Shown: positions 8,445-29,015 of the stretch, one piece after another | How the letters are laid out: every line of letters starts with the position of its first letter | How positions within the stretch are numbered: position 1 is the first letter of the stretch | NCBI RefSeq assembly: GCF_000341395.1 | Contig: NC_020304.1 | Location: forward strand, 2,250,001-2,282,000 | Length of the DNA stretch: 32,000 nt | Origin: Desulfocapsa sulfexigens DSM 10523 | GTDB lineage: Bacteria; Desulfobacterota; Desulfobulbia; Desulfobulbales; Desulfocapsaceae | Reading direction: 5' to 3' | Made by a program: the position numbers and the translations under genes | The notes under the pieces: generated by a model | Database searches by the model: none | What the model was told of the DNA's origin: nothing | The model's input: only the letters and a program-made list of their open reading frames with translations

Positions 8445-8546
8445 AGAGATAACATTCTCTATACTCTAAGGTTCGGGGCTGAGCGCATATTGCTTCAATG
8501 TGTGATACTTTTTGTTGTCTGGTAGAGACTGGTTTGGGGCTGATAG

Positions 8547-9740: not shown

Positions 9741-9805
9741 TGCTTTATCTCTTTTCTATACTAAAAGAAGAATGGCGAAGACGCCTATGAAGAATAATCA
9801 AAGGT

Positions 9806-11110
9806 TCAGAGGCAATCAATATTTCTTTTAAGGAGTTGGTGGTATATTTTCTCTATTTCTCTTCCATTTTCCTCTATTGATTTAACCGCTGGAATTCCAT
9901 TGCGCAATTGATCAGGCAGAGTTTCTGATTCGATATATTTTATCATGACTTTTGTTAATTCTGTGGAATCACCAACAGCAAAAAGCAGCCCGTTCACACC
10001 GTCAGTCACCAGATCTGCCATACCACCAATATCTGAAGTGATGACAGGAACTCCCGCCATAAAGGCTTCATGAATGGTGAGTGGTGAGTTCTCGAACCAT
10101 ATTGATGGTACTACAAGAACATCAATTTCTGAAAGGATAGTGGCAACTTCATCGTTTGGAATTAGACCTTCAAAGAAAATGGCCGGAGACTTGACCATTT
10201 TACGGAGTCTACTGTTGTATTCAGGGAACCAGTCGAGATTTCCGTAAATATGCAGTTGTGCTTTATTTTCCGGTACCTGATTAAAGGCTTCAATGAGGAC
10301 ATGAACCCCTTTGTGTTCACACAGGGTTCCAATAAAACCAAAACGAACCAGTGAATCTTTTTTGTTTTTTTGCTTTTTAAAGTTTGTTGTATCAAAGCCA
10401 TTATCCGAGAAGATTATTTTGTCTTCAGGGATGCCATATTGTATGAATTCATTTCTCAGAAAAGGGGAAGGGGCAGTGAACAGATCTATATTTTCGATTG
10501 CAGCAAGGATATGACGGTTTCGCTCCTTTAATGAGTTGATTCTGGTTTCGGACGTCCTGGATCTGCTGATTTTCTGCCGGAAAAGATGGTAAAAGGACTG
10601 AAGGGAAAATCTGTTGGAATTTTCTGGTTTTTCATATAAACAATCTGCACATTTTGTCCAGTCAACGGTATGACAGATTTCAAGATTCCCCTGCAGTCGC
10701 TGTCCCCAGCGTGGGCATGTCAGCCAGTAGTCATGAAGGGTGAAAAGAACAGGAATATTATTGTGTTTTGCAATTTCAGGATACCTGAACGAGTGGTACA
10801 GGAGATGTTGTAAATGGATAATATCAGGTTTGAACTCATCAAGAACAGTTTGGAAAATAGTTTCCATTTTTGTATCATTATAGGGCTCTCCCAGCAGGTC
10901 AGTTTTAAATGGTCTGAAAACTTCGATGCATTGCAGGCCGTTAAAAGTTCGTTCCGTGACTTTATATGACAGAGTTAGAGAGGTGAATTCAGTAAAGAAC
11001 AAGCAGATTTCATGTTTTTTTGATAATTCTTTAGCAAGCCGATATGTATAAATTTCCGCTCCTGCCTGGTGGCTGGGCAGAAAATCATGTATGACAAATA
11101 AAATTTTCAT
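9806..11110 (-). CDS. GT4-family glycosyltransferase
   Basis: The N-terminus MKILFVIHDFLPSHQAGAEIYTYRLAKEL is typical of the family. The C-terminus has VVPSIWFENSPLTIHEAFMAGVPVITSDIGGMADLVTDGVNGLLF, including E-x7-E. Confidence 0.85.
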   Translation of the reverse strand: MKILFVIHDFLPSHQAGAEIYTYRLAKELSKKHEICLFFTEFTSLTLSYKVTERTFNGLQCIEVFRPFKTDLLGEPYNDTKMETIFQTVLDEFKPDIIHLQHLLYHSFRYPEIAKHNNIPVLFTLHDYWLTCPRWGQRLQGNLEICHTVDWTKCADCLYEKPENSNRFSLQSFYHLFRQKISRSRTSETRINSLKERNRHILAAIENIDLFTAPSPFLRNEFIQYGIPEDKIIFSDNGFDTTNFKKQKNKKDSLVRFGFIGTLCEHKGVHVLIEAFNQVPENKAQLHIYGNLDWFPEYNSRLRKMVKSPAIFFEGLIPNDEVATILSEIDVLVVPSIWFENSPLTIHEAFMAGVPVITSDIGGMADLVTDGVNGLLFAVGDSTELTKVMIKYIESETLPDQLRNGIPAVKSIEENGREIEKIYHQLLKRNIDCL

Positions 11111-11277
11111 TAAATCTTAAGTGTTAGCAAGAAAAAAGTTCTTATTGGGGTATGAGTACATTAAGATAATGACAAATACATTCTTTCACAAGGAATGCTT
11201 TGTCTTTTACTGTCCCCTAACCGTGTTTTCGCAGAGGAGAATCATCTGATACGTTCAGTTTGAGTGATGGATTTTGA
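11111..11277. promoter_or_regulatory. Divergent promoter region between the 9806-11110 (-) and 11278-12717 (+) genes
   Basis: This is the only non-coding gap (167 bp, AT-rich) between two divergently oriented genes, so it must carry both promoters. I could not pin down individual -35/-10 boxes with confidence. Confidence 0.4.
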
Positions 11278-12717
11278 ATGAATGACTGTATTTCAGTAAT
11301 TATTCCAACAAAGAATGCGGGTGAGTCGTTTCGGGAATCTCTTGATATGATTTTTTCTCAGGAGATTGCCTCTCAGTTGGAAGTTGTCATAATCGACTCT
11401 GGTTCGACTGATCAGACATTGCAAATATGTGCTGATTATCCTGTTAAGCTTATTCAAATACCCGCCTCCTCATTTAATCACAGCGCTACCCGGAATCTGG
11501 CAATTTCTGAATCCTGCGGTGATATTTGTGTACTGACGGTTCAGGATGCAATTCCTGTGGACAATAGATGGTTGACAACACTTGTTGAACCATTAGTAAG
11601 GGATGGCAGGGTTGCAGGCGTTTTTGGACAACAGGTAGCCAGGGATGATGCTTCCTTTTTCACAAGATACTGTCAACTTCTTTATTATCGGGAATGGAGG
11701 AGTGACTGGAAACAGGAGTACGAGCAGTTACCCATAGAGACGGACGACTGGGAAAAACTGTCACATGAGCAGCGGCGGGTTGTTTCCAGATTTGACAATA
11801 CAAACAGCTGTGTCAGGAGATCCGTCTGGAAGGAAATTCCTTTTCCTGTGGTCCCATTTGCTGAAGATGTTGCCTGGGCGATCGATGTGTTAACTGCCGG
11901 GTTTTCAATTTTCTGGAAACCGACAGCTCAGGTTTTTCATTCACATGAACGTCCATTATCGTATACCCTGAAGCGATCCTATGTTGATTCCAAAACCATT
12001 GCTGTCCTTTTGGGTGACAGTTCTTCATCTTCAATGACTCATCAAATGGCACGGTCTTTAATTAAATGGTTGTCAAAGGAGGCAGCCAGATACCTTCAAT
12101 CGATCTCCGGGCAACTGGAAGGAAAGATGCATAAGTCAGAGATTCTGGCGGAGGCTGACAGATGTTGGCAGTTGAAAGTCAGTGCCGGAAAATCATCTGA
12201 TAAAGATGGCACTATGGAATCTGGGTCACATCTGTTTCCTGGCGCAGTTTCTTTGAAAAACCGTATCTTTCGCCAATATTACAGGAGTGTTTCAGGGCCT
12301 CCCTGGTTCAGGAAGATGTGCCGCAATATTTTCCGGAATGGTCGATTACTGCGAAAAAAGTTTAAAGCCGGTGCTGGGGATAATCAGTCAATTACTTTGG
12401 AACTGCAGGCATGTCACCGTTATTTTTTGAATCTCCTTCTCTCTGTACATCTTGAGAATGCAGATAGAAGTGAGGACAGTGGCAGTTCTGTTCGATATGG
12501 CGCTGCTGTTATGGTAGCCGGGTCTTTTCTCGGGCAGAATATAAAAGCAGGTGATAGAACCGAGGAGCTGATCAGCATGGATGATGACCATGTGGACGTG
12601 AGGTTACCAGGTGACATTGAAGTGTGGAAACTCCTTAATGACTGGTATGAACAGGGGTTTGACCAGGAAGCCACTGCGATCTCCCGGTTGGATCAGATTT
12701 TGACAGATGGTGTCTGA
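11278..12717 (+). CDS. GT2-like glycosyltransferase (rhamnosyltransferase-like N-terminal domain) with a ~240-aa C-terminal extension of unknown function
   Basis: The N-terminal ~240 aa carry ISVIIPTKNAGESF...VVIIDSGSTDQT...LTVQDAIPVD. I recognise no motif in the remainder (SSSSSMTHQMARSLIKW...DQILTDGV). Confidence 0.72.
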   Translation: MNDCISVIIPTKNAGESFRESLDMIFSQEIASQLEVVIIDSGSTDQTLQICADYPVKLIQIPASSFNHSATRNLAISESCGDICVLTVQDAIPVDNRWLTTLVEPLVRDGRVAGVFGQQVARDDASFFTRYCQLLYYREWRSDWKQEYEQLPIETDDWEKLSHEQRRVVSRFDNTNSCVRRSVWKEIPFPVVPFAEDVAWAIDVLTAGFSIFWKPTAQVFHSHERPLSYTLKRSYVDSKTIAVLLGDSSSSSMTHQMARSLIKWLSKEAARYLQSISGQLEGKMHKSEILAEADRCWQLKVSAGKSSDKDGTMESGSHLFPGAVSLKNRIFRQYYRSVSGPPWFRKMCRNIFRNGRLLRKKFKAGAGDNQSITLELQACHRYFLNLLLSVHLENADRSEDSGSSVRYGAAVMVAGSFLGQNIKAGDRTEELISMDDDHVDVRLPGDIEVWKLLNDWYEQGFDQEATAISRLDQILTDGV

Positions 12718-12747: not shown

Positions 12748-13701
12748 TCACAGGTCTGTCTTGAAGGGTTGTTTGTAAAAACCCAGATGCCAGTTGACCA
12801 GAATAACCAGAGAGAGAAACAGAATGGTAACTGATTTTTTCGAAAAACCTTTTCTGCCCAGAAAAAATAAAAGTAAAGCAAGTAACACTAATGGTGAAAA
12901 GAACAGTAGTGAGGGCTTGTAAATTGACGCAATGATGATGCTGCACAATACAAAGGGCAGAAGACACGGTATGTAATGCAGAGGTCTGAAAAAACCATAT
13001 TTTCTGAGTAACAGATACGTTGCGCCTCCATAACGTTGCATCATGCTGCAGAGCCCGGAGAGTGATTGCGGACGGTAATGTCTGACAATTGCCTCCGGGT
13101 TACGGATTAAAGTGTAGCCATTTTGAATCAGCCGGTAGTCAAGATCCACATCCTCGCCTGGCCACAATGATTCGTTAAAGCCTCCGATGCTTTCAAAAAT
13201 ATGTTTTTGGTATGCAGAGTTACAACTAGGATTGTGCTGGGTCTCAGTCAGGCTGGTGTACGGCTTCATGTAGGATGTTGCAAAACCCAGGATGGCAAAA
13301 GTTTCCTGGACACTTTTGCCAAAAGCAGTCTCATTTGGGGGGCTGATCTGATTCCCTCCCACACCGGCGATTTTGTCGCCTGAAAACCCTTTCTGTAGTT
13401 CTTTTAGCCACTGACGATGGACGATGCAATCACCATCGGTGAAGGCCACGATCTCCCCTTTTGCCTTTTTAACTCCGATATTTCTGGCCCTGGATGGGCC
13501 TCCGTTGGGGATCTGAATCACCTTGACTCTTTTGTGCGATTGGCAGATCTTGGTGGTATTGTCCGTTGAGCCATCATCGACGATGATGATTTCATAGTCA
13601 GGATAATCCAGGTTTAGCAGTGATTCCAGGCAGTCGTGGATGGTTCTTTCACAATTGAACACGGGAACGATAATTGATATTTTAGGAGAGCGTTCTGTCA
13701 T
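12748..13701 (-). CDS. GT2 glycosyltransferase with C-terminal transmembrane helices
   Basis: Motifs ISIIVPVFNCERTIHDCLESLLNLDYPDYEIIIVDDGSTDNT...AFTDGDCIV, with a hydrophobic C-terminal ~80 aa. Its ATG directly follows the TAA of the upstream radical SAM gene (0-nt spacer). Confidence 0.85.
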   Translation of the reverse strand: MTERSPKISIIVPVFNCERTIHDCLESLLNLDYPDYEIIIVDDGSTDNTTKICQSHKRVKVIQIPNGGPSRARNIGVKKAKGEIVAFTDGDCIVHRQWLKELQKGFSGDKIAGVGGNQISPPNETAFGKSVQETFAILGFATSYMKPYTSLTETQHNPSCNSAYQKHIFESIGGFNESLWPGEDVDLDYRLIQNGYTLIRNPEAIVRHYRPQSLSGLCSMMQRYGGATYLLLRKYGFFRPLHYIPCLLPFVLCSIIIASIYKPSLLFFSPLVLLALLLFFLGRKGFSKKSVTILFLSLVILVNWHLGFYKQPFKTDL

Positions 13702-15141
13702 TTAGCTGTTTTTTTGACTAACAAGATAGGAAAGAAAATTTTTAGCACCTCGTAATTTACAATAGAGGTCTGTTTTACTTCTGGCTGAAAGGAGAAATTT
13801 TAATATGTATGAAGGTCGGAAATAAAATTTCTTTAATCCACGATCAGTGCTTTCCTGAATGAATTGACTACTCAAGCCAGGATACTCAATAACCGCCGAT
13901 TGTTCTCCGTCAGTTAGCCACTGGTCCCAGCTGGTCGCTTGGAGAAGACCGTTATCTTTGCATATTTGAAAAAATTGAGTTCCGGGAAATGGCACTGCCG
14001 CTGAAAACTGGACCGAATGTAACCCCAGGTTACAGGCAAAATCAAGGGTTGTGTTGATGCTATCCCTGGTTTCACCAGGGAGTCCAAGCACAAAGCAACC
14101 ATGTACATCCAGGCCGGTTTTATGGGCCAGGGACATGAAATGGCGAGCATTGGCAACTGATTCTCTTTTGTTCATGGTCGCCAGCATATCATCGCTTCCA
14201 GATTCAAAACCAACCAGGAGTTCTCGACAGCCAGCTTTTTTGAGTATCTGGAAAAGTTCTTTGTCTCCGGTGTCTGTTCTGGCATTTACTGAAAAGGTTA
14301 TTTTCAGTTTCCGGCGTAAGATTTCTTCACAGATTGCCATAGCATTAGCTTTGTTGATGGTAAATGTGTCATCTTCGAAAAAGAATTCACCGCCTTTGAC
14401 CACCTGTGGACAGATTTCAATGTCATGCTCAATCTCATCAACAACCTTTTCCGGCAATCTGAGACGAACCTGGTGGCCATGCATAACTTCCGGCCAAAGA
14501 CAGAAGATACATGTGTGTGGGCAGCCTCTACCTGAAAATATATCAATGTACGGATGCAGTTTCAGACCATCAAAATATTTCATCAGGTCAAGCTGATGCC
14601 ATGCCGGAAAGGGGAGAGAGTCCAGATCCTGGATGAGTTGCCTTTTTTCGGTTCTTTGCGGTGTACCATCTTTCAGATAACAGATACCGGCAATGTCATC
14701 GAGAATTGGATAATTTGCAATAACATCCCTAATTGTCAGATCATATTCACCAATGCATATGACATCTACGGCTCCATTACTCAGGAGAAGTGTTTCTTCG
14801 GGCAGAGCGGAGCAATGTGGTCCAACCATTAGAATTTTGGCATCACTTACTTCTTTACAGATTCTTGCACATTCAATATCAGAGAAAATTGAGGGAGTGG
14901 TGGAGTCCAGGACAATAAAATCAGGCTGGCCATTTTTTACCAGCAAGCGCAGATCGTCTTTTTGAAGGTTTTCTGCCGGAAAATCAAAAAGTTTTGCCGT
15001 AATTCCTTCTTGTTCAAGCACAGCAGTGCCGTAGGCAAGCCAGTCAGGTGCCCGTAAAACACGACCTCGTGTCCTGGCTGCCCAGCGTTGTGATCTGTTG
15101 AAATTTTTAACAAATGGTTCGTTGATGAGAAATACTTTCAT
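13702..15141 (-). CDS. B12-binding-domain radical SAM enzyme (class B)
   Basis: An N-terminal Rossmann-like B12-binding-type region (KVFLINEP...FIVLDSTTPS...KILMVGPHCSALPEE) is followed by the radical SAM cluster motif GRGCPHTCIFC (CxxxCxxC). Confidence 0.85.
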   Translation of the reverse strand: MKVFLINEPFVKNFNRSQRWAARTRGRVLRAPDWLAYGTAVLEQEGITAKLFDFPAENLQKDDLRLLVKNGQPDFIVLDSTTPSIFSDIECARICKEVSDAKILMVGPHCSALPEETLLLSNGAVDVICIGEYDLTIRDVIANYPILDDIAGICYLKDGTPQRTEKRQLIQDLDSLPFPAWHQLDLMKYFDGLKLHPYIDIFSGRGCPHTCIFCLWPEVMHGHQVRLRLPEKVVDEIEHDIEICPQVVKGGEFFFEDDTFTINKANAMAICEEILRRKLKITFSVNARTDTGDKELFQILKKAGCRELLVGFESGSDDMLATMNKRESVANARHFMSLAHKTGLDVHGCFVLGLPGETRDSINTTLDFACNLGLHSVQFSAAVPFPGTQFFQICKDNGLLQATSWDQWLTDGEQSAVIEYPGLSSQFIQESTDRGLKKFYFRPSYILKFLLSARSKTDLYCKLRGAKNFLSYLVSQKNS

Positions 15142-15199
15142 GTTGCCAGGGTCGTAGAGTTATATCGAATATTGTCGATTGACGTAAAGTACCACTTGT

Positions 15200-16330
15200 T
15201 TACGAATTAGTGTAGATTTCAGAGAGCGAGTTCCTCATATTCTCTATGCTAAAGAGCTCTTTATTCCTCCTGTAGAAGTTTTCTCCCATTGTTGTCCTCA
15301 ATGTTTTTGATTGAATGAGTTTACACAGCTTGTCCGCAAATTCCTGTTCATTCTTGACCAGAAAACCTGAAGTGCCGGTATTTATTAAGTCGGAATGTCC
15401 GGGAATGTCAGTGGCAACAATTGCTTTCTTGAAGAAACTTGCTTCTATTAGTGAATATGGCAATCCTTCCCAGCGTGAAGTTGAAGTTATAATGTCTACC
15501 GTTTTTGTCAGTTGATGGATGTTCTTCCGATATCCGAGGAGGGTGACATGGCTCATCATATTATCTCTTTTGATTTGTATTTCAAGCTTCTTACGAAGCG
15601 GTCCGTCACCGATGAAGAGAAAATGACTATTGTTACATCTTTTTGTTACTTCCTTGATTATGCGGAGAAGAGAAAGAGGATTCTTTTGCCGATCAAGTCG
15701 GCCTATCTGCATCACGATAACAGATGATGATGGGATGTTTAGCTCATTAACAATGTTAGAATGTGACTGGCTGCAGGTTTCAATTCTTGTTGTGTCGATA
15801 TGATTACGGATGAGCTGTATCTTGTGTGTGTGGGCAATTTTCCAGTGTTTAAATCGATTTTGTTGAGAAGATGAAACAGCAATAAAAAAGGCTGTGAATG
15901 GACTGAGCAATTTAAGAAGATATCGGCTCCCTTGATAGTTTGAATTCTCGCCAAAGGAATCGACATGTGGTGTGAAAATAATTTTTTTACATCGGGTAAA
16001 AAAGGTAGAGCCATACCCCCATATCGCCGATTGTAAATTATGGATATGAACCAGGTCGATATGGTTCTTTTGAATTATTTTTCGCGCTGTTACAAGACCT
16101 TCTAATGAGAAAAAACGACTTGGTTGTACCATTGTAAGGTGGTCTTTTGGCACAACATCAGCTAAAAAAGCTGGGATTTTTTGGTCATCGCTTGAGCAGA
16201 GTAACCAGAATTCAATATTTTCATCCTTTACAACCTGCAGGAGATAGCGAATGTGTCTACTGATACCACTCAAGAAGGGTTCATAGAACAGAATCAAAAT
16301 CTTACAGTGTTTTTTTGAGCCTAATGACAC
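15200..16330 (-). CDS. GT4-family glycosyltransferase
   Basis: Motif ITSTSRWEGLPYSLIEASFFKKAIVATDIPGHSDLINTGTSGFLV includes E-x7-E. The start at 16330 is a GTG and there is no nearby in-frame ATG. Confidence 0.8.
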   Translation of the reverse strand: MSLGSKKHCKILILFYEPFLSGISRHIRYLLQVVKDENIEFWLLCSSDDQKIPAFLADVVPKDHLTMVQPSRFFSLEGLVTARKIIQKNHIDLVHIHNLQSAIWGYGSTFFTRCKKIIFTPHVDSFGENSNYQGSRYLLKLLSPFTAFFIAVSSSQQNRFKHWKIAHTHKIQLIRNHIDTTRIETCSQSHSNIVNELNIPSSSVIVMQIGRLDRQKNPLSLLRIIKEVTKRCNNSHFLFIGDGPLRKKLEIQIKRDNMMSHVTLLGYRKNIHQLTKTVDIITSTSRWEGLPYSLIEASFFKKAIVATDIPGHSDLINTGTSGFLVKNEQEFADKLCKLIQSKTLRTTMGENFYRRNKELFSIENMRNSLSEIYTNS

Positions 16331-16370
16331 GGTTCGCTGTATTCCCTGGATGTGTTTTTTGGAGGTGGTA

Positions 16371-17144
16371 TCATTGGAATTTCATTGATTTCTTTTGGGG
16401 GGAAAAGATGTCAAATTTGACAAGGTTGCTTTTATGGAGCACATACTTGGCCAGGACTAGTAGCGTTTGAAGTCCGTATTTGACAGATCTTGGAAAATTA
16501 ATTGATGAAGCTTCAGAAAAGTATCGACAGGGAATGGGAATGTCACCAATTTTGAATTTGAAATAGGCTGCCTGGGCAAGGAATTCTGAGTCAAAAACAA
16601 AATCATCTGAGTTTTTCATATAGGGGATTTCGTGGATGACTTGTTTTGAGTAAGCTCTGAACCCAGAGTGGAAGTCTCCAAGGTTTTGCCCCAATATTAT
16701 ATTCTCTATAAACGTTAGAGACCTGTTGGCAATATACTTGTAAAACGGCATACCACTTTCCAACGCTTCGGCACGAGACCGCACCCTGCAGCCAATAATA
16801 ATGTCACAGATACCGGACTCAATAAACCCGACAGCGTAGGGGATTAATCGAGAATCATACTGGTAATCGGGGTGTATCATTATGATAATATCACAATCAA
16901 TTTTCATCGCTTCAGCGTAGCATCGTTTTTGATTTGCTCCGTACCCTTTGTTTTGATCCAGCCTGTGCACAGTTATCCCAAGACCCTCAGCAATTTCGAC
17001 AGTTCTGTCGGAGCTTGCATCATCGACAAGAATTATTTCATTAACACTTTTGTCCGGAATATCGTTGACTGTCATTTGCAGTGTTTTTTCCGCATTGTAG
17101 GCAGGCATAACAACGACAACTTTTTTTGAGGATGTTCGAGTCAT
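16371..17144 (-). CDS. Small soluble GT2 glycosyltransferase (Dpm1/GtrB-like catalytic domain)
   Basis: Motifs [14 protein letters not shown]...[13 protein letters not shown]...[11 protein letters not shown]. It is 257 aa with no obvious TM segment and sits immediately downstream of the GT-C gene in the operon. Confidence 0.83.
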
Positions 17145-17195
17145 CTTAGCGTTAACAGTTATGTTTACATGTGGTGATATTTTTTTTCATAGTGT

Positions 17196-18917
17196 TCAGT
17201 CCGGTCGAAGAATGTGGATGGAACCATCATTGCCGATAAAGCGTGAAAAGGGAAATTCTTTTACAACCTGATAGTGAGGGAGGGGACCAAGTGTTATGAG
17301 ATATTTTTCTTCGTTTACCCACCACCAGCTATGTTTTTTTCTATTGTAATCTATTGTATTGGTATCAGAACAGAAATAACCATTAAATTCAAATCCTCCA
17401 TCGATCTCGCATGGATTAACCTGGATGTCGTAAAGAAGATAAGCATGAGCTTGATGGAGACTGCGTTTTGCAGACATGAAATCCTTAACACCAAAAATAC
17501 TTGTTCCAGCAAGGAAGAGAAGAATTGCTGTGGAAAGAATGATTTGGAGAAATGTGGGCTTAGTTTTTGTGACAGTTATTTGTTTTGTGAACCAAATAAG
17601 TAATAAGGCACATAGTGGTATAAGATAGCGGTCATGAAATCCTGTCAACAGGATAATCCCTGCATATATAAAAGAACAGATTAAGGCGAAGGAAGAAGTA
17701 AAACAGGTGTCATGATTATGTTTCTCCCTATCAGTGGAAAATAAGCATTTAACTGATTTAAGAGAAAACAAGAGGAGGATCATGGCGGAAAGGAGTGCGA
17801 CGAAAGCTAAAAGAAAAAAGAACGGTTTGGGTAAGGATATAGTTCTTTGAATATCCAATAGATAGATGTCTTTTAGTAGGAGTGGCCCAATGCCAAAGTC
17901 ATAAATGACATTTCTATGGAAGTTTATGGGAGGGTTGATGAGTCCACCCATAAGACATACTTCAAAGAGTACAAAGGAGGATAGGAGTAAAATGAATATC
18001 CTTCGGTTCTTTTTCCAACCTAACAGCTTGTGGCGGTATAAAACAACAAGAGGCGATAGCAGAAACCCTGTGTACATGAGCACTATCCCTGCCTGAGAGA
18101 AAAGAAAGAAGAGATAGTCTGGAAATCCTTTGCTTTGGGGGGCAGAGAAAATTTTCTTAAACACTGAATGACTGGTGATGGGTGTAGAACCACTTTGCCA
18201 GAGAAATACTTCGTACAGAATCCATGGTATTATGGTAATGCCGAAGGTCAGCAGGAGCATCTTTTTCTTATTCAGGTGCTTGCCACTGGGGTGAAGAAGA
18301 CAGGTGATGAGAAAACCTAAGGGAATGACTATGCCGATTTGGCGGGTAAGAATTGAGAATAATGCGAAAAAAAGACCTGAAATAAGTAAAATATGGCTAT
18401 GTTCTTCAATGCCCATATGGAGCAACAGAAATGATGAAATGAGTAGGAAAAGAAACGTAATATCAGACATGAAGGTGAAGCTTTGCGAAAGAAACAGCGG
18501 GTTTAATATAAGTACGAGTGTAGCCAGGAGAGATAGCCACAGGGAATTTTTCATCTGTCGCAGCAGCAGAAGGAGAGCGAAAGAAGATCCAATTGCCAGA
18601 ACGAGAACAGATATTCTAAGTATTGTTACAGAAAAGCCAAAGCATGTGGAAAAAAGCAGACCCCATAGTACATGACATAAAACGGAAGGTCCACCGTCAC
18701 CCCAACCTGTCGCAGTTACATTTTTTCCATCCAGCAGTGTTTCAACGATGCGAACAAAGCACCAGTCATCGTTAACCATGAATTCACCGACCGGACTGAT
18801 AAAGAGTACAATGCCTCCCCAAAGGCTGAGGAGGATGGTAATAGCAACGAAGAACAGTTGTCTCTGGTTTGGAGTGTGATTTGCGAGTGATGAGTGACCA
18901 AGGTTTTTTTCAAGCAT
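17196..18917 (-). CDS. GT-C-fold polytopic membrane glycosyltransferase (ArnT/PMT/GT39-like)
   Basis: It has about 13 hydrophobic helices, an acidic motif in the first extracytoplasmic loop (EFMVNDDWCF) and a soluble C-terminal domain of ~100 aa. It is flanked by Dpm1-like GT2 genes. Confidence 0.68.
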   Translation of the reverse strand: MLEKNLGHSSLANHTPNQRQLFFVAITILLSLWGGIVLFISPVGEFMVNDDWCFVRIVETLLDGKNVTATGWGDGGPSVLCHVLWGLLFSTCFGFSVTILRISVLVLAIGSSFALLLLLRQMKNSLWLSLLATLVLILNPLFLSQSFTFMSDITFLFLLISSFLLLHMGIEEHSHILLISGLFFALFSILTRQIGIVIPLGFLITCLLHPSGKHLNKKKMLLLTFGITIIPWILYEVFLWQSGSTPITSHSVFKKIFSAPQSKGFPDYLFFLFSQAGIVLMYTGFLLSPLVVLYRHKLLGWKKNRRIFILLLSSFVLFEVCLMGGLINPPINFHRNVIYDFGIGPLLLKDIYLLDIQRTISLPKPFFFLLAFVALLSAMILLLFSLKSVKCLFSTDREKHNHDTCFTSSFALICSFIYAGIILLTGFHDRYLIPLCALLLIWFTKQITVTKTKPTFLQIILSTAILLFLAGTSIFGVKDFMSAKRSLHQAHAYLLYDIQVNPCEIDGGFEFNGYFCSDTNTIDYNRKKHSWWWVNEEKYLITLGPLPHYQVVKEFPFSRFIGNDGSIHILRPD

Positions 18918-18964
18918 TGCAATACAAACCTTTTGAGGTTGGAATCAATCTCATTTCTGCTGAC

Positions 18965-20338
18965 CTAAATACGTTTTATTTTGGTAAAGATTTTTTTTAG
19001 ACCATTTTTGTGGAGTAAAATTGAAACTTGCTGGAGGAGTCGTTGGGGCCTTGTGTAAAATTTGAGATAGGCTTGAGATTTCAACTGCTCAATTTTTCTG
19101 GGGAGGACATTCATATGTTCAGGAGAATAATTACAAGCACGATAATAATCAAAATCAGTAAATTGACCTGAAAGCAACTTTTTTTCACTTGCATAGAGAT
19201 GTGTTCCTGGGAAAGGAGTCAAAATACTGAAGGAGACATCATCTATGGGAAGCTTGCATGCAAAACGAATTGTCTCTTGTAAGTCGTCGAGCGTTTCAGA
19301 TGGATGTCCAAGGATAAAATATCCCTGTACCTTCAACTTGAGTTTTTTTGCAATATTCACAGCTTCTATGATCTGTTTGGTGCTGATTTTCTTATTATAG
19401 ACAGTGCCTAGTAATCTGTCGGAGGAAGATTCCATGCCGATGTTTATCTTTCTTAATCCAGCTGCATACATTTTTTCTAAAAGTGCAGCGTCTATATTGT
19501 CGGCTCGTAAATTACAGCACCATCTGAAGTTCATTTCACTCTCGATTAACAGTGAACAGATTCTTTCTGCCCAGACTTTATCTATCATGAATGTGTCATC
19601 TTCAAACATAAACGCATTTATGGAGTATCTCTTTTTTAATAAGTGTAGTTCTTCAATGATGTTCTCGGGCGCCCGCTTCCTGATTTTTTTGCCAAACAGG
19701 TTTGTTAATGTTGGCTGACAAAAACTGCAATTGTAGGGACATCCACGAGATATGATAAGGGATGTTCCTGTAAGGTTTGGAGACACGGTGTCCATACTGT
19801 TCCATATCTTAATATATTCCGACATATTAAAATGGGATCGGTCGGGTGCGGGGAGGCTGTCGATGTCAGTATAGGTCGACCTGCGTTCGTTGGAGATAAT
19901 CTGGCCATTCTCTCTGTATATTAAATTGGCTACTTTTGCAGGAGAATCCAGATTTATCAGTAATTCATAAAATGCCTCTTCACCTTCTCCCTGTATTACC
20001 ATGTCAACGTGAGGATCAGACATGCAGAGTTCTGGAAGAACTGTCGGGTGTGGTCCACCAAAGATGATTTTGGCTGATTGATCCTTTGATTTTATTAAGG
20101 CGGCCATTTCATGTGCATCACCCGCCATAGTTGTCATCACCGAAAAACCAATCAGAGTATATTGGGAGAAGTCATAGGAAGAAATATTTTTGTTGTTTTC
20201 TGTCTCAAAAGTGGCGTCATAGACATCAATAGAGAGATCGGGGAGCTTCATTTTCAGGAATGAAATAATGGATCCCAGTCCCAGAGGAGGCTGTCCTGAC
20301 GGATATTTAAAGCGTGGATAAATCAGGAGTATTTTCAT
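18965..20338 (-). CDS. B12-binding-domain radical SAM enzyme (class B)
   Basis: An N-terminal B12-binding-type region (MKILLIYPRF...LIGFSVMTT...KIIFGGPHPTVLPE) is followed by SRGCPYNCSFC (CxxxCxxC). I prefer the ATG at 20338 to the track's TTG at 20344. It lies 2 nt after the TGA of the upstream GT2 gene, or overlaps it by 4 nt if the TTG is used. Confidence 0.85.
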   Translation of the reverse strand: MKILLIYPRFKYPSGQPPLGLGSIISFLKMKLPDLSIDVYDATFETENNKNISSYDFSQYTLIGFSVMTTMAGDAHEMAALIKSKDQSAKIIFGGPHPTVLPELCMSDPHVDMVIQGEGEEAFYELLINLDSPAKVANLIYRENGQIISNERRSTYTDIDSLPAPDRSHFNMSEYIKIWNSMDTVSPNLTGTSLIISRGCPYNCSFCQPTLTNLFGKKIRKRAPENIIEELHLLKKRYSINAFMFEDDTFMIDKVWAERICSLLIESEMNFRWCCNLRADNIDAALLEKMYAAGLRKINIGMESSSDRLLGTVYNKKISTKQIIEAVNIAKKLKLKVQGYFILGHPSETLDDLQETIRFACKLPIDDVSFSILTPFPGTHLYASEKKLLSGQFTDFDYYRACNYSPEHMNVLPRKIEQLKSQAYLKFYTRPQRLLQQVSILLHKNGLKKIFTKIKRI

Positions 20339-20340
20339 GG

Positions 20341-21084
20341 TCAAGGCTTACGCAACAGGGACTTGATTTTGAACTTAAATAAATCAAACCCAACATTGAT
20401 CGGATCGCTTAGCGGGCGAAATTTTGAATCAAAATTGTTTTCCCAGGTTATGGGTACTTCTTTTATACGATACTTTCTCTTTTTTGCGATACAGAGGAGT
20501 TCTGGGTCAAAACCAAAACGGCATATTGTCAGTTCAGGAAATATTTGTTGGGCGCATTCTGCTGTAAAGGCCTTAAATCCACATTGGGAATCTTGAATAT
20601 CTGGCAACAGGAGCCATCTGACAATATATCCAAAGAGTTTGCCCATCCGGTCTCTGACAAAATTCTGTGGGATTGTTTTTTGAGAGTTGGCCAGTGCACG
20701 CGATCCAATTGCTATATCATAATCTTCTTTCAGAAGAGCTTGTGCCATCTTTTCATACTCATCTATAGGAGTAGACAGGTCTGCGTCAGTAAAGAGGCGT
20801 ATTTCTCCGTTTGCATGGAGCATTCCCCGTTTAATTGAATACCCTTTGCCCCTGTTTTTGCTGTTCTGAAGAATCGTAATGGGGACAGATTGTGAAGAGC
20901 ATTCTTTTTGCAGAATAGACAGCGTATTGTCTTTTGACCCATCATCAACGATGATGAGTTCAATCCTTATTGGGCGCTGGGAAAAATACGTGCTGATATC
21001 TTGAATGGTTTGTTGAATTCGATTTTGTTCATTGTATGTCGGGATGATCACGCTTAACAAGTAGTTGTCTTCTTTGATAAACAT
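20341..21084 (-). CDS. Small GT2 glycosyltransferase (polyprenyl/dolichyl-phosphate hexosyltransferase-like, Dpm1/Alg5 type)
   Basis: Motifs LLSVIIPTYNEQNRI...ELIIVDDGSKDNT...RLFTDADLSTP (DAD). It is the first gene of the 7-gene minus-strand operon. Confidence 0.85.
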   Translation of the reverse strand: MFIKEDNYLLSVIIPTYNEQNRIQQTIQDISTYFSQRPIRIELIIVDDGSKDNTLSILQKECSSQSVPITILQNSKNRGKGYSIKRGMLHANGEIRLFTDADLSTPIDEYEKMAQALLKEDYDIAIGSRALANSQKTIPQNFVRDRMGKLFGYIVRWLLLPDIQDSQCGFKAFTAECAQQIFPELTICRFGFDPELLCIAKKRKYRIKEVPITWENNFDSKFRPLSDPINVGFDLFKFKIKSLLRKP

Positions 21085-21450
21085 AAGTTTACTGTGGGCA
21101 CAGTGGCTCGCTCATTGTGTTTTCTTCTGATACTCTTATGTCTTGCCTGGTTGCTATTATGGCTGTGCTGTAAGGGGAAATGTGTACATAAAGTAGAAAG
21201 TTTATCCCACGTGAGAGGGGATTGCAAATATCATATGGTCTACACTGCCGAAACATTGGCAGAAAGTTGCTTCTGAAGTATGTTTTCATTGTCTGTATTT
21301 CTAACTTCAGCTTTCTTTACTGGTTGAATCTGGTATTTTTGTTTTTAGGTGATTGTTGATTAGTACTCTGAGTTTGCAGATGGTCAATATGCTAACTTTA
21401 TTCTCATTTTTTAGTCAAAGAATAGTATTCTTGGTCATAGATTATTTTTT
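21085..21450. promoter_or_regulatory. 366-bp divergent control region between the 7-gene minus-strand operon and the 3-gene plus-strand operon
   Basis: This is the only gap between the divergent operons. Two sigma70-like pairs lie on the minus strand: TTGACC (21387-21382) - 16 nt - TACTAA (21365-21360), and TTGCAA (21227-21222) - 17 nt - TAAACT (21204-21199). In AT-rich DNA such matches are weak evidence. Confidence 0.4.
21196..21304 (+). pseudogene. Short degraded remnant of an IS200/IS605-family (Y1) transposase N-terminus
   Basis: The translation ESLSHVRGDCKYHMVY matches the conserved IS200 TnpA N-terminal block (recalled as KSLAHTRWNCKYHIVF) at about 10 of 16 positions. After a 1-nt frame shift it continues PKHWQK, compared with PKYRRQ. 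The remaining ~110 aa of a tnpA gene are absent. Confidence 0.35.
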
Positions 21451-23184
21451 ATGGATGTAAGCACTAAACATAAAGTTTTGCTTCTGGTCATTATATTTCT
21501 TGTGTATCTTTCAGCACACTGGAGTGGTGTTCGTTCGCAATATGTAATCAATGATGATGTCAGACAACAGATTTATTGGATGCAGAAGTGGCAGGATCCT
21601 GATTTGTTTGAGAATCATTATCTAACCGAATACGCAAAACAGTATGTTCCGTGGGGGGTTAAAGTAATATACCGGGCAGCTTCTTATTTTATAAATCCCG
21701 TTCAATTCAGTAAAGTTCTGAGTGGACTACTTTTTTTAATGACGGCTGGCAGTCTCTTTCTTCTCGCTTCCCGGCTCGGTGATGAGTTGACTGGAGTTGT
21801 GACAGTTTGTGTTTTTTTGTATTTTGGGTTTTTCCTGGGTGCTGTTTCCGGTGGCCTTTCCAGAGGCTTTGTTTTTCCACTGCTTATTCTGTATCTCTTT
21901 TTTCTGTCCGGCAATGAAGTGTTTCGTGCTGGTATCGTTATAATGGTACAAGCATTGTTTAATCCCTACCTCTGTCTTTTATGTCTCGTCACACATAGCT
22001 TATTTCTACTTTGCACTCAGTGGTTCTGCCATTTTCCTAGATTGAGGGATGTGTCATGGTTAAACATAAGCAGCGACAGACGAGAACGGTCACAAATCCC
22101 CATAGGGCATTTACTGCTGTCCATAGGACCGGTATGTGTCGGAGTTGTACTCCTGGTCGTGAAATATCGTCTATTCACAGTACCAGATTTTGGGGAAATT
22201 GTTTCGTATGGGGAAATGGTCGGGAATATTGAATATACAGCCGCCGGAAGATATGAAATTATCCCAGTACCATCAATGTTTTTTGAGTGCGTTCGTCCGT
22301 TTATTCAGTTCCCCCCACTTGGAGTATTGAGTGTGATTGCGAGCGTCACAGGGACTCTAATACTTGCTTTTGTTGCTGTGTCAGGGTGGAATAACCAGGC
22401 TGTATACCAACAGATTCAGAGGCTGGAAATTTTTCTTTATCTTCTTTTTGCGTCAGTATTCTTATACTTCCTGGCACGCCTTGTCCTCATGGATCTGTTT
22501 CTGCCAAGTCGCTACATGGAATATTCCTTAACGGTTGTGTATTGTGTATTGACAGGAATGTTTGTTCGTTCAGGCATGGAATATAAGCAGGGAATAAAAA
22601 AGCATACAATCCTGTTGGTAATTTTACTTGTTCTTCTAGGAACGATACGGCTGAATGGTATAGGAATTTACGATTACACAAAGCAGTCATCCTTATATCA
22701 GTTCTTTTTGACAACTCCTAAGAATTGTACTATCGCCGGACACCCTGATATTATGGATAATATAATGACTTTTTCGAAACGAAGGGCTTTTGTCAGCTAT
22801 GAACTCTCTCATACGTGGTATGATCAATACTGGTCAACTATCAAGAGTAGGACATATCAATTCTTTAATGCGTATTATTCCGAAAATCCTGACGAACTAA
22901 GAGATTTTTGCCGAAAACATAAAATTGATTATATGGTGGTTAGAGAAAGCGATTTTCAAGAGAATGGTCTTGGTGGAACGGCCGATTACTTCGAGCCTTT
23001 TGGCACCTATATTCAAGGGCTTTTGAGGGGGAAATCTTCATTTGCCGTGTTTGATGAGACGAATTTCAGGCCAGTGTATTCTCAAGATGGGATTCGTGTG
23101 TTAGCATTTGGAACTGCTCAAGAGCAGGGTTACAATATGTTTGATTTGAGAACCACTGCAGAAAACGAACATCAGGGACTGTAA
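21451..23184 (+). CDS. Polytopic membrane protein with a C-terminal soluble domain, probably a GT-C-like glycosyltransferase
   Basis: It has about 11-12 hydrophobic helices, an acidic first-loop motif (YVINDDVRQQIYW) paralleling the one in the 17196-18917 protein, and a hydrophilic C-terminal domain of ~170 aa. The family call is architectural only. Confidence 0.55.
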   Translation: MDVSTKHKVLLLVIIFLVYLSAHWSGVRSQYVINDDVRQQIYWMQKWQDPDLFENHYLTEYAKQYVPWGVKVIYRAASYFINPVQFSKVLSGLLFLMTAGSLFLLASRLGDELTGVVTVCVFLYFGFFLGAVSGGLSRGFVFPLLILYLFFLSGNEVFRAGIVIMVQALFNPYLCLLCLVTHSLFLLCTQWFCHFPRLRDVSWLNISSDRRERSQIPIGHLLLSIGPVCVGVVLLVVKYRLFTVPDFGEIVSYGEMVGNIEYTAAGRYEIIPVPSMFFECVRPFIQFPPLGVLSVIASVTGTLILAFVAVSGWNNQAVYQQIQRLEIFLYLLFASVFLYFLARLVLMDLFLPSRYMEYSLTVVYCVLTGMFVRSGMEYKQGIKKHTILLVILLVLLGTIRLNGIGIYDYTKQSSLYQFFLTTPKNCTIAGHPDIMDNIMTFSKRRAFVSYELSHTWYDQYWSTIKSRTYQFFNAYYSENPDELRDFCRKHKIDYMVVRESDFQENGLGGTADYFEPFGTYIQGLLRGKSSFAVFDETNFRPVYSQDGIRVLAFGTAQEQGYNMFDLRTTAENEHQGL

Positions 23185-23188
23185 GTAT

Positions 23189-24457
23189 ATGTTGGAGTGG
23201 CTAGCCGAACTGAAAAGATCAGAAAAAGTTGTGTGGATTCTTTTTAGTTTTACATGCTTTCAGCTTGTGACAAAGTTTCCCAATATTACATTGATACCAG
23301 GAGAACGGGCAAAGGTCTTTTCTGGTATACTCTGCTTGATCACTTTCCTCTATCTCCTGCTAATAAAAAAAGATTCTCTTCATCTGGACCGGGAATGGGG
23401 TGTCTGTATTATTCTTGCATTGTTATGTGTTTGTAGCGGAATTGCCAGTGGGGAACCAACCTCTCCTTTGTGGCGAGGCTTGACTGTCCTTTCTTCAGGG
23501 ATTGGTGGCTTTTGGTGTGGAAGGCTGTTGCTAAATACCCCTTCTCGGATTTTCTTGTTTTCTAAACTATGTCTTATTCTTTTAACATTACTTCTTCTCT
23601 TGGGAATAGGTGGCTATTTTCTGTATGGAAATGTGTTGCACTTAGCAGATATTCATAAACATCCATTCAATAACCTGATTCTCCTGCTCTCTTTTGGTCC
23701 CCTGAGCTTATTGTTCAGAGATGATCGACGGGTGAAGATAATTGGAATCTTTTTTTTACTTGTGAGCTATTATGTCATGTCGCTCAGCTTTGACCCGATA
23801 ATCTGGTTTCCTCCTCTCTTGGTCGTAGGAGCAATGGTGTTTACCAATAAAAGAAGAAAAGGTACTGTCTTTTTTATTACGTTAGCCGTCTTTCTAGCGT
23901 CGACGATTCACTTGTACCAGGTGCCCGGTCTTTTTTTTAACAAAGAGGATATTTCAATTTGGTTTAGGGTGGAGAATTTCTTTTTCTCGACTCACATGGC
24001 ATTACAAAAGCCTCTTCTCGGTATTGGCTTGGTGGCTCCTCGTCTAGAATATCTGGAGGATTATGAGATTGTGTATCCCTATGTCACAAAAGAACAATTT
24101 GCCGAGGTTATTCCAGAAATCAACCGTTCTTCTGAAAATCAATTCTTGACGTTTATGTGTGATCTTGGATTCCCATTTGTTCTCCTCTATTCTTTTTCTG
24201 TTGTGATGTTGTATACAAGACTTTTAAGGTATCTGCGACAGGGGAAGTCTATAGGGATGATCCACCCAGTGGTTTTTTGGGTTCCAATAACTGGCACTCT
24301 CATTCATCTTCAGTTTTATGATGGATTACTTCAGCCTCAACCATGCTGGTTCTTTCATATTCTTCTGGGAATGATATCAGTTCAGAATGTAGCGCCGACA
24401 GGTCAGAATCTCTCTCCTGAAGACGAAAAACAAGGCTCTCCTACAGCCTATGTCTGA
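23189..24457 (+). CDS. O-antigen ligase / Wzy_C-family polytopic membrane protein (ligase, polymerase or O-oligosaccharyltransferase)
   Basis: It has about 10-12 TM helices. A large loop is followed by SSENQFLTFMCDLGFPFVLLY, which resembles the (H/N)NxxLxxxxExG block of WaaL/Wzy_C proteins. It starts 4 nt after the upstream stop. Confidence 0.58.
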   Translation: MLEWLAELKRSEKVVWILFSFTCFQLVTKFPNITLIPGERAKVFSGILCLITFLYLLLIKKDSLHLDREWGVCIILALLCVCSGIASGEPTSPLWRGLTVLSSGIGGFWCGRLLLNTPSRIFLFSKLCLILLTLLLLLGIGGYFLYGNVLHLADIHKHPFNNLILLLSFGPLSLLFRDDRRVKIIGIFFLLVSYYVMSLSFDPIIWFPPLLVVGAMVFTNKRRKGTVFFITLAVFLASTIHLYQVPGLFFNKEDISIWFRVENFFFSTHMALQKPLLGIGLVAPRLEYLEDYEIVYPYVTKEQFAEVIPEINRSSENQFLTFMCDLGFPFVLLYSFSVVMLYTRLLRYLRQGKSIGMIHPVVFWVPITGTLIHLQFYDGLLQPQPCWFFHILLGMISVQNVAPTGQNLSPEDEKQGSPTAYV

Positions 24458-24502
24458 GTAATGTGTTATCAGTGATACTTTAAAATAAACTGTGTGTATA
24501 CA

Positions 24503-28424: not shown

Positions 28425-28778
28425 TAAGTCAATATGTTGAGTTGTTGTGATAGGTTGAATACTGCTCTGTAGAAGACTGGAATAGATTCATTTGGGAAAA
28501 TTCTAACATGAAATCAAAAAAATCCTTAACTATTTTTTATAACAGAAGGGTATGAAGGGGTTTTGATTGGATACATTAATGCTGTGACATGGGTATATTA
28601 AAAGCTGTTAAAGCAGGAATGCCTAATTTTCGACTGACCTCATACAACGAGGATTGTATTGCTTTTTGGTCGAAATTGGAATACGAACACGACAATGATT
28701 TCTCTCTATTTAGTTTGAAACAGGTTGGAAGGGTTTGGAAAAAGAGAGTAATTGCTATGGACTGTGAAAGTGTAGGCC

Positions 28779-28820
28779 AAAAAAAAGGTCTTTATAAGTA
28801 TTGCCTACTTATAAAGACCT
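28779..28820 (-). terminator. Rho-independent terminator downstream of tRNA-Leu (potentially bidirectional)
   Basis: The minus strand reads AGGTCTTTATAAGTA-GGCAA-TACTTATAAAGACC followed by T8. That is a perfect 14-15 bp stem with a 5-nt loop, starting 8 nt after the tRNA CCA end. Confidence 0.75.
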
Positions 28821-28827
28821 TTAAATT

Positions 28828-28914: not shown

Positions 28915-28924
28915 AACGCTGGTA

Positions 28925-28953: not shown

Positions 28954-29015
28954 GACTTTCTTCATGGTGGTGTCAAAAAAGAACAGGTTTGATAATTGAA
29001 CAATACAATGGCGAA

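Follow-up and report, generated by a model that had tools for sequence, protein, structure and literature searches.

Class B radical SAM genes and glycosyltransferase genes in Desulfocapsa sulfexigens: two conserved modules with a possible role in tailoring lipid-linked sugars

In extracytoplasmic glycosylation, Dpm1-type glycosyltransferases of family 2 (GT2s) make lipid-phosphate sugars at the cytoplasmic face of the membrane, and glycosyltransferases of the GT-C fold use such donors at its outer face. The lipid-linked sugar can be altered before it is transferred. ArnD deformylates it, and DprE1 and DprE2 carry out a redox tailoring (flavin/NADH) that turns decaprenyl-phosphate-ribose into the arabinose form, which feeds the GT-C enzymes Emb and Aft. 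In the haloarchaeal pathway AglJ primes dolichyl phosphate with a hexose, other GT2s extend it, and the STT3-type enzyme AglB performs the transfer; STT3 enzymes, like those of the PMT type, are protein glycosyltransferases. Most sugar tailoring in bacteria takes place at the level of the nucleoside diphosphate (NDP) sugar. Here we analyse a 32,000-nucleotide (nt) stretch of the Desulfocapsa sulfexigens DSM 10523 genome (NC_020304.1, positions 2,250,001 to 2,282,000), referred to below as the window. Its central part holds a run of seven genes, in which two genes for radical S-adenosylmethionine (SAM) enzymes each stand next to a GT2 gene and a gene for a GT-C enzyme lies between them. Radical SAM enzymes work in the cytoplasm.

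The radical SAM enzymes with a B12-binding domain (class B) comprise more than 220,000 sequences, and very few of them have known substrates. From knockout data it has been proposed that HpnJ ring-contracts the glucosamine which the GT2 HpnI puts on a hopanoid and HpnK deacetylates; hpnI and hpnK adjoin the gene in true hpnJ loci. The calditol synthase Cds of Sulfolobus contracts the ring of a lipid-linked glucose to give calditol; in the biosynthesis of moenomycin, the class B enzyme MoeK5 acts as a C-methylase. In published similarity networks Fom3 and MoeK5 co-cluster with HpnJ at stringent thresholds, and according to reviews the role of cobalamin is unclear in the non-methylating members OxsB, BchE and HpnJ. 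A search of open-access papers found none in which radical SAM enzymes are connected with sugars on undecaprenyl or polyprenyl phosphate, with AglJ or with GT-C enzymes, and two recent reviews that cover class B and lipid-modifying radical SAM enzymes make no mention of a system composed of a GT2, a B12-binding-domain radical SAM enzyme (B12-rSAM) and a GT-C. An earlier note on this DNA, made from the sequence alone, had stated that no radical SAM step has been described in Gtr/Arn-type pathways, and none was found in that literature. The note did not mention HpnJ, however, which is the closest precedent: radical chemistry on lipid-linked sugars is known in kind from HpnJ, Cds and MoeK5, and one of the enzymes described here belongs to a sister family of HpnJ.

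Dpm1- or AglJ-like GT2s occur together with class B radical SAM enzymes and GT-C transferases in a conserved association that is real and, as far as it appears, undescribed. In transcription order the seven genes of the run are designated GT2a, rSAM-A, GT-C, GT2b, GT4, rSAM-B and GT2c (Table 1), and a third B12-rSAM gene of the window, rSAM-C, lies beyond the run. We propose that the run combines two separately conserved modules, and that in each of them a class B radical SAM enzyme acts on a lipid-carrier-linked sugar made by a neighbouring GT2, the product then being a substrate for GT-C transferases on the far side of the cytoplasmic membrane; in our judgement this proposal stands about evenly between being right and being wrong. 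Module 1 would consist of GT2a, rSAM-A and GT-C, and module 2 of an AglJ-like GT2 located outside the run, rSAM-B, GT2c and possibly GT4.

All three B12-rSAMs match PF02310 and PF04055 above cutoff and retain the CxxxCxxC motif (CPYNCSFC in rSAM-A, CPHTCIFC and CPNNCKFC in the other two), which identifies them, at the level of domains and motifs, as class B enzymes. None of them reaches the cutoff of any curated NCBIfam family. The match of rSAM-B to the HpnJ model (TIGR03471) amounts to 378.1 bits against a cutoff of 577.6 and extends over positions 2-477 of the protein and 2-471 of the 472-position profile. The next best model is BchE with 150 bits, and AprD4 (118), the ladderane-lipid family (116) and HpnR (90) score lower still. 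The protein is 33-35% identical over its full length to the annotated HpnJ of Burkholderia, Mycetohabitans and Paraburkholderia, and 60-82% identical to its own orthologs in Desulfomonile, Elusimicrobiota, Sumerlaeota and many metagenomic lineages. A neighbour-joining tree was calculated for 56 B12-rSAMs with 200 bootstraps, HpnJ being the characterised class B family that it contains. In this tree the rSAM-B orthologs (200/200) and the three annotated HpnJ proteins (200/200) form separate subclades, and both belong, together with a Lawsonia plasmid protein and L055, to one clade that is recovered in 188 of the 200 replicates (94%). Because the two subclades are separate, rSAM-B is best described as a sister family of HpnJ and not as a member of it. 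The branches just outside this clade are B12-rSAMs that mostly adjoin GT2 genes. The relationship to HpnJ is the strongest functional clue that the locus offers. The possibility that rSAM-B is itself a true HpnJ was considered and rejected on the grounds of the sub-cutoff score, the separate subclade and the lack of hpn neighbours.

The position of rSAM-A is different. Its best models are HpnJ (172 bits, cutoff 577.6), BchE (147), ApyD (140) and the MCR glutamine C-methyltransferase (131), and its orthologs form a separate clade in 194 of 200 replicates; by profiles and tree it is an orphan family. The third enzyme, rSAM-C, is placed elsewhere in the tree.

Members and relatives of these families also occur in other settings. 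In Lawsonia intracellularis, a pathogen that lives obligately inside cells, a glycan locus takes up about half of the 27-kb plasmid 1 (NC_008012.1, locus L090, 2621-15368). Besides a radical SAM enzyme of the rSAM-B/HpnJ clade (37.7% identity) and a second radical SAM enzyme, it encodes GT2s and five or six methyltransferases of class I, along with two proteins of the DUF2304 family and one DUF2142 membrane protein. Seven tandem B12-rSAM paralogs are arranged on one strand of an 11-kb metagenome-assembled contig (L015, 1-10319), and runs of three to five such paralogs are present in L022, L018 and L034.

The genomic context of rSAM-B is conserved over large evolutionary distances. In three distant genomes, of Desulfomonile, Elusimicrobiota and Sumerlaeota, the gene belongs to a cassette in which an AglJ-like GT2 with a transmembrane (TM) anchor is followed by rSAM-B and then by a GT2 of the GT2c type. 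The AglJ-like GT2s of D. tiedjei, Elusimicrobiota and Sumerlaeota carry PF26629 (GT2_TM_C), and in D. tiedjei the cassette, two membrane GT2s and the radical SAM enzyme, stands alone, without a GT-C gene or a glycan locus. The whole set of rSAM-B loci numbers 83, a metagenome scan having added 80 orthologs. A GT2c ortholog (214-401 bits) is the next same-strand gene downstream of rSAM-B in 46 of the 68 loci with enough sequence, at a median gap of -4 nt; as GT2 genes make up about 5.6% of the open reading frames (ORFs) in the sampled loci, this pairing exceeds chance. GT2c is a conserved, translationally coupled partner of rSAM-B. On the upstream side 63 loci have enough sequence; the gene adjoining the rSAM-B ortholog there encodes an AglJ-like GT2 (250-355 bits) in 30 of them and a polytopic protein in 19, and those polytopic neighbours that were sampled are PMT_2 or STT3 proteins. 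For the 36 loci that extend 3 kb or more to either side, the count was widened to three genes from the rSAM-B ortholog, and here any GT2 is present in 35, a GT2c ortholog in 27, an AglJ-like GT2 in 26, a polytopic protein in 20 and a GT4 in 9. In the window the remaining cassette member is found at 8547-9740, displaced by about 4 kb from rSAM-B and outside 12748-21084, and it scores 129 bits on the AglJ model, compared with 122 for its counterpart in D. tiedjei. In the 83 loci HpnK/YdjC had no match, HpnI had only weak ones (at most 20 bits), and no hpn or shc gene was found.

For rSAM-A, orthologs with 40-52% identity occur in Elusimicrobia, Fibrobacterota, Spirochaetes, Woesearchaeota and Nanoarchaeota, and the statistics of its neighbours come from 8-9 contexts. 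The family profile scan of contigs returned mostly generic B12-rSAMs, 27-34% identical, with only L009 and L010 as near-orthologs, and neighbour counts from the scans of B12-rSAM loci are lower bounds, some genes having been missed in high-GC loci such as L010. A GT2a ortholog lies directly upstream of the rSAM-A ortholog in one genome of Elusimicrobia (L005) and in two of Woesearchaeota (L006 and L009), at gaps of -4, 32 and 4 nt, and these upstream genes score 184-275 bits on GT2a versus 32-78 on the other GT2s of the window. A PMT_2, PTPS_related, STT3 or unassigned polytopic gene is located within a few genes of the rSAM-A ortholog in eight of eight contexts. More distant B12-rSAMs, from many phyla, also stand in a triad with a GT2 and a polytopic protein. 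The earlier note had set the conservation of the GT2-rSAM adjacency as the test on which its idea could fail; the adjacency is conserved across genomes for both radical SAM families, and far beyond close relatives.

Some loci with rSAM-A orthologs contain further genes. In L008 (8479-11575) a GT2 (261 amino acids (aa), ArnC/AglJ-like), a YdjC deacetylase (128 bits on the HpnK model, sub-cutoff) and a B12-rSAM (142 bits on the HpnJ model) come immediately behind two PMT_2 genes and an rSAM-A ortholog. The triad has the same domains as HpnI, HpnK and HpnJ, but stands in a GT-C setting with no hopanoid genes in view. In L005 of Elusimicrobia (8419-12108) and L093 of Spirochaetes (8410-12314), the rSAM-A orthologs are followed by very large TPR-containing proteins; the one in L005, with 1229 aa, about 19 TM segments and TPR repeats, is reminiscent of TMTC-type GT-C enzymes.

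The GT2s of the window fall into different types. The closest relatives of GT2a in the PDB are the Pyrococcus furiosus DPMS (70.8 bits), ArnC (53 bits, three ArnC structures) and GtrB (52), and its best NCBIfam models, all sub-cutoff, are PgfS, AglJ, the Dol-P-hexose transferase, ArnC and PpgS. The corresponding relatives of GT2b are DPMS with 45.9 bits and then ArnC with 29, and its best models are AglJ (72 bits), the Dol-P-hexose transferase (65) and PpgS (54). Neither protein has TM helices, that is, both are soluble. None of the curated equivalog models of polyprenyl-phosphate sugar synthases in NCBIfam was passed, the best scores being 54-72 bits against cutoffs of 325-529. Dpm1-like is thus a fair description of GT2a and GT2b, not proven membership, and GT2a is the predicted polyprenyl-phosphate sugar synthase of module 1. 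GT2c has another profile, with MftF (157 bits), EpsD (111), PgaC (101) and AglG (61) as best NCBIfam models and with chondroitin synthase (87 bits) and GalT1 (81) as best PDB matches, GtrB and DPMS reaching only about 27; by these matches it is a TM-anchored, glycan-extending GT2 similar to MftF, EpsD and chondroitin synthase. The description of the GT2 genes as Dpm1/GtrB-like in the earlier note consequently fits GT2a and GT2b, which have DPMS and ArnC as nearest relatives, but not GT2c. GT2c is 22% identical to HpnI (E 6e-5) and does not match the HpnI model; on these two counts the idea that it is an HpnI paralog, with rSAM-B and GT2c as a duplicated HpnJ/HpnI pair, was discarded.

The polytopic protein of the run was called a GT-C in the earlier note, and this identification is borne out by several lines of evidence. 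Its Pfam PMT_2 score of 24.5 bits is just under the cutoff of 26.1, and most of its homologs carry PF13231 and bear the NCBI name 'glycosyltransferase family 39'. In addition to the polytopic fold, the first extracytoplasmic loop contains an acidic motif, N49-D50-D51-W52, which directly follows TM1 and is invariant in 35 homologs. The AlphaFold (AF2) model has a pLDDT of 86.3 and a pTM of 0.89, and its top 28 Foldseek matches in the PDB are all GT-C enzymes that use lipid-linked donors, among them Pmt4, STT3, PglB, ArnT, ALG9/12/3, AftB and EmbB (probability 0.96-1.00, TM-score 0.31-0.47); sequence and profile searches against the PDB gave no match. In a Syntrophobacteraceae genome (L091), a homolog of this GT-C stands beside UbiA, FAD_binding_4 and adh_short genes, a lipid-sugar donor set of the DprE1/E2 type. 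This single case is consistent with donor-synthesis cassettes that can be swapped beside the GT-C.

The arrangement of the run is compact. Its gene order is found again on a public contig of 11.5 kb, and rSAM-A is 100% identical to a protein of D. sulfexigens DSM 10523. The ORF and Pfam scans found all seven genes where the earlier note had placed them, co-directional on the minus strand and in the order given there, and both ends of the run are flanked by genes on the opposite strand. The spacers in transcription order measure 2, 47, 51, 40, 58 and 0 nt; five of the six lengths had been given correctly, and the spacer before GT-C had been counted as 46 nt. Read directly in the sequence, the junction of GT2a and rSAM-A is TGA-cc-ATG, and at the junction of rSAM-B and GT2c the ATG of the latter comes directly after the TAA of the former. 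No minus-strand terminator-like site lies inside any spacer, promoter and terminator counts being within shuffle expectation. A promoter-like site is present at 21418-21389 on the minus strand, ahead of GT2a; the number of such sites is not above that in shuffles. A single operon for the seven genes is plausible. An Rfam scan detected no cobalamin or SAM riboswitch across the window, the 21085-21450 region included.

Table 1. Genes of the seven-gene run, the AglJ-like GT2 and the region upstream of the run; coordinates refer to the window
Feature	Coordinates	Strand	Description
GT2a	20341-21084	minus	247 aa; Glycos_transf_2, 106 bits (Pfam)
rSAM-A	18965-20338	minus	ATG start, TTG at 20344 possible alternative; B12-binding 63.6 bits, Radical_SAM 85.8 bits
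GT-C	17196-18917	minus	573 aa, about 14 TM helices, small C-terminal beta domain; PMT_2/GT39-like
GT2b	16371-17144	minus	257 aa; GT2, 80 bits (Pfam)
GT4 (GT-B fold)	15200-16330	minus	Glycos_transf_1 95.6 bits, Glyco_transf_4 59.7 bits
rSAM-B	13702-15141	minus	B12-binding and Radical_SAM (Pfam)
GT2c	12748-13701	minus	GT2, 130 bits (Pfam); 2-3 C-terminal TM helices
AglJ-like GT2, C-terminal TM domain	8547-9740	minus	AglJ model 129 bits over nearly the whole profile; TM helices at 243-393
Divergent intergenic region, 366 nt	21085-21450		upstream of GT2a; likely promoter region of the run

The two modules could operate as follows. In module 1, GT2a would load a hexose or N-acetylhexosamine onto polyprenyl phosphate at the cytoplasmic face, and rSAM-A would remove a hydrogen from this lipid-linked sugar by means of a 5'-deoxyadenosyl radical. 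The resulting change would keep the phospho-acetal intact, as C-methylation via methylcobalamin, deoxygenation or epimerisation would, for example. The product would then be flipped, and GT-C would move the sugar to a periplasmic acceptor. Since the radical SAM enzyme resides in the cytoplasm, the GT2 at the inner face and the GT-C at the outer face, their activities can meet only at the lipid-linked sugar that has not yet been flipped. If the first, phosphate-linked sugar underwent ring contraction, a plain phosphoester would be left and the ability to act as a donor would be lost, and by this chemical reasoning a change that keeps the acetal is likelier for module 1. In module 2, the AglJ-like GT2 would prime polyprenyl phosphate with a hexose, and GT2c and GT4 would extend it, as AglJ and AglG do in haloarchaeal N-glycosylation; rSAM-B would catalyse an HpnJ-type radical rearrangement of one sugar, the leading candidate being a ring contraction to a carbocycle, and its target would be a distal sugar or an end-product glycolipid. 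What the analysis shows is the gene content, the assignment of domains and fold, the conservation of the pairings and the place next to HpnJ in the tree; we infer that the enzymes alter a sugar on polyprenyl phosphate before the GT-C transfers it, and the carrier, the order of the steps, the type of reaction and the acceptor are inferred as well. C-methylation had been the example chosen in the earlier note, and no evidence favours it over ring contraction or deoxygenation. We know of no sequence signature that separates methylases from non-methylases among class B members.

Several observations weigh against this proposal. The most closely spaced pair is itself a misfit, because GT2c is not a lipid-phosphate sugar synthase and its 0-nt junction with rSAM-B does not follow a Dpm1-to-rSAM logic. 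The ring contraction considered for rSAM-B would, if it affected the first sugar, abolish the role of that sugar as a glycosyl donor, and the two modules may differ in their logic. The analogy with HpnI, HpnJ and HpnK is only partial, given that GT2c is not HpnI-like and HpnK/YdjC is missing from the 83 loci, and Fom3 and MoeK5, which published networks place with HpnJ, are not in our tree. The scores of rSAM-A on the two peptide-modifying families, ApyD and the MCR glutamine C-methyltransferase, are similar to its score on HpnJ. Its context is variable too: the Spirochaete locus L093 has a GT-C and no GT2 nearby. Homologs of the GT-C occur also without any radical SAM gene, and one of them stands alone. 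No ORF in the fetched loci matches both B12-rSAM and GT2, that is, no fusion of the two was found. Finally, the window contains no candidate for a flippase of the GtrA or ArnE/F type, as no small free-standing multi-TM ORF (at least 50 aa and at least three hydrophobic segments) is present; small 4-TM ORFs are present in the archaeal loci L006 and L009.

Three other explanations have to be considered. In the first, soluble nucleotide sugars are the substrate of the radical SAM enzymes, ahead of any transfer, and the GT2s use the modified NDP-sugar, so that adjacency reflects a shared pathway. This would agree with the level at which bacterial sugars are mostly tailored and with the want of a flippase in the window. 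It would agree, too, with the match of rSAM-B to AprD4, a diol-dehydratase of the radical SAM type whose substrate is a soluble aminoglycoside sugar, and with the presence of NAD-dependent epimerase/dehydratase genes in some rSAM-B loci, for instance L160. However, for HpnJ, the closest characterised relative, the proposed substrate is the sugar already transferred to the lipid; the seven-gene run includes no nucleotide-sugar synthase, dehydratase or epimerase, and the D. tiedjei cassette has only its two membrane GT2s and the radical SAM enzyme. We hold this explanation to be unlikely, yet one that deserves to be kept in mind.

According to the second explanation, the substrate of the radical SAM enzymes is a membrane lipid itself, be it the carrier or a glycolipid end product (a hopanoid, an ether lipid or an amino lipid, for example), and rSAM-B and GT2c make a stable glycolipid head group and no donor for a GT-C. 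The products of HpnJ and Cds are indeed end-product lipid head groups, the D. tiedjei cassette lacks a GT-C and a glycan locus, and a ring-contracted first sugar could not, from its chemistry, serve as a donor. The scores of rSAM-B on the ladderane-lipid family and on HpnR point in the same direction, as does the serine-palmitoyltransferase-like gene that adjoins rSAM-C. SHC has been reported to be common in Desulfobacterota, and the lineage therefore leaves room for a hopanoid substrate. Against this, rSAM-B stays below the HpnJ cutoff and none of its 83 loci has HpnI, HpnK or another hpn gene, its upstream partner is AglJ-like and so of the type that uses a polyprenyl-phosphate acceptor, and GT-C-type genes are found within three genes in 20 of the 36 loci. 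A membrane-lipid substrate appears to us rather improbable on balance.

The third and weakest explanation, which we regard as very doubtful, is that the acceptor is the substrate of at least one of the two radical SAM enzymes, either a protein or peptide that the PMT_2/STT3-type GT-C glycosylates or a protein already glycosylated: it draws on the closeness of the ApyD and MCR glutamine C-methyltransferase scores of rSAM-A to its HpnJ score, on the protein substrates of PMT-type and STT3 enzymes, on the large TPR or TPR-fused polytopic proteins that flank the rSAM-A orthologs of L005 and L093 and would fit protein recognition, and on the GT-C without a GT2 in L093, but no small ORF resembling a precursor peptide is present in the run, rSAM-A has been inherited together with a specific GT2a ortholog in bacteria as well as archaea, and rSAM-B groups with HpnJ and not with peptide-modifying enzymes.

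If the radical SAM enzymes do act on lipid-linked sugars, as we propose, a radical tailoring step would be added to the textbook route of GT2, flippase and GT-C in extracytoplasmic glycosylation, and unusual surface sugars, such as C-branched sugars and carbasugars, would be predicted in anaerobes and in poorly known archaea. HpnJ would then belong to a broader clade of enzymes that are perhaps easier to study. Two large unnamed families of class B radical SAM enzymes gain in this way a testable class of substrates, lipid-linked sugars, on the basis of gene context and of the kinship with HpnJ, and the cassette of the cultured D. tiedjei, consisting of only three genes, provides a compact target for heterologous reconstitution. 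A wider generalisation is possible as well, which we put forward tentatively and would sooner bet against than for: the two families, widespread in anaerobic bacteria and in DPANN and other archaea, would turn polyprenyl-phosphate hexoses into non-canonical donors or head groups (C-methylated, deoxygenated or carbocyclic), which PMT_2 or STT3 GT-Cs would install on periplasmic proteins or glycans; this would be an ancient and so far unrecognised layer in the chemistry of cell-surface glycans, with HpnJ as a specialised offshoot.

The surroundings of the run show that the locus is a large surface-glycan region. On the plus strand, a Wzt-type ABC ATPase with a Wzt_C carbohydrate-binding domain (1726-3117) is directly followed by a 1387-aa fusion of FkbM methyltransferase, GT2 and WbsX (3114-7277), and this combination is the hallmark of a polysaccharide that is exported by an ABC transporter and whose chain ends in a methylated terminator. 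More GT2 and GT4 genes are located between 7278 and 12717. On the other side of the run, a 577-aa protein with about 13 TM segments and without a Pfam or NCBIfam match (21451-23184, plus strand) adjoins a Wzy_C-like protein (23189-24457, plus strand); the same pair, with a 575-aa protein that likewise has no Pfam match, follows the GT-C homolog in the Syntrophobacteraceae genome (L091, 9086-12675).

Beyond these genes lie the two further radical SAM genes that the earlier note had mentioned and that the Pfam scan recovered, a SPASM radical SAM gene at 24494-25720 and, on the minus strand, rSAM-C at 25733-27157. The best models of rSAM-C are BchE (182 bits) and HpnR (136), and HpnJ reaches 118. 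Its upstream neighbour at a distance of 25 nt (27183-28424, minus strand), an 'aminotransferase', is an alpha-oxoamine synthase, with sub-cutoff scores of 358 bits on serine palmitoyltransferase and 352 on BioF. The two genes could form a unit of their own, with an amino lipid or a sphingoid lipid as the molecule to be tailored. A tRNA was detected at 28831-28914 on the minus strand (49 bits, Rfam), and the 136-aa ORF that overlaps it (28589-28999, plus strand) matches no family and is unlikely to be a gene.

Compared with the described systems, the locus shares individual features with each of them. The Gtr (GtrA/GtrB/GtrV), Arn (ArnC/ArnD/ArnE-F/ArnT) and mycobacterial PpgS/Rv3779 systems also combine a Dpm1-like GT2 with a GT-C, and the GT-C of the window has the ArnT/PMT fold; unlike them, the window has no small gene for the flippase that defines the Gtr and Arn systems, GT2a and GT2b do not have TM helices at the C-terminus as GtrB and ArnC do, and the tailoring enzyme would be a radical SAM enzyme of the cobalamin type. 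With DprE1/DprE2 and Emb/Aft it would have in common that a polyprenyl-phosphate sugar is tailored before GT-C transfer, and a similar gene set stands beside the L091 homolog of the GT-C, whereas the DprE chemistry depends on flavin and NADH and not on radical SAM, and the DprE gene set is absent from the window. The resemblance to the haloarchaeal Agl pathway lies in the AglJ-like first gene of the cassette (122-129 bits), in the AglG score of GT2c (61 bits) and in the STT3 genes that flank some rSAM-B loci; these scores are far below cutoff, however, the described pathway has no radical SAM enzyme, and the GT-C of the window is of the PMT_2 type and not STT3.

Among the radical SAM enzymes, Cds and MoeK5 act on sugars that are already attached to a lipid, a likeness to the function proposed here, but what they lead to is not a GT-C donor: a membrane lipid as end product for Cds, an antibiotic for MoeK5. 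The likeness to HpnI, HpnK and HpnJ consists in a GT2 that puts a sugar on a membrane lipid and an adjacent B12-rSAM that remodels this sugar, and the order of radical SAM gene followed by GT2 gene is also that of hpnJ and hpnI. In contrast to that system, the partners of rSAM-B are AglJ-like GT2s of the polyprenyl-phosphate type and GT-C enzymes, without HpnI, HpnK, hpn or shc, and the family is spread over many uncultured lineages as well as Elusimicrobiota and Sumerlaeota. In its manner of working the system resembles a cross between two known kinds of logic, that of Gtr, Arn and PpgS, in which a GT2 is joined to a GT-C, and that of HpnI, HpnK and HpnJ, in which a GT2 is joined to a radical SAM enzyme acting on a lipid-bound sugar.

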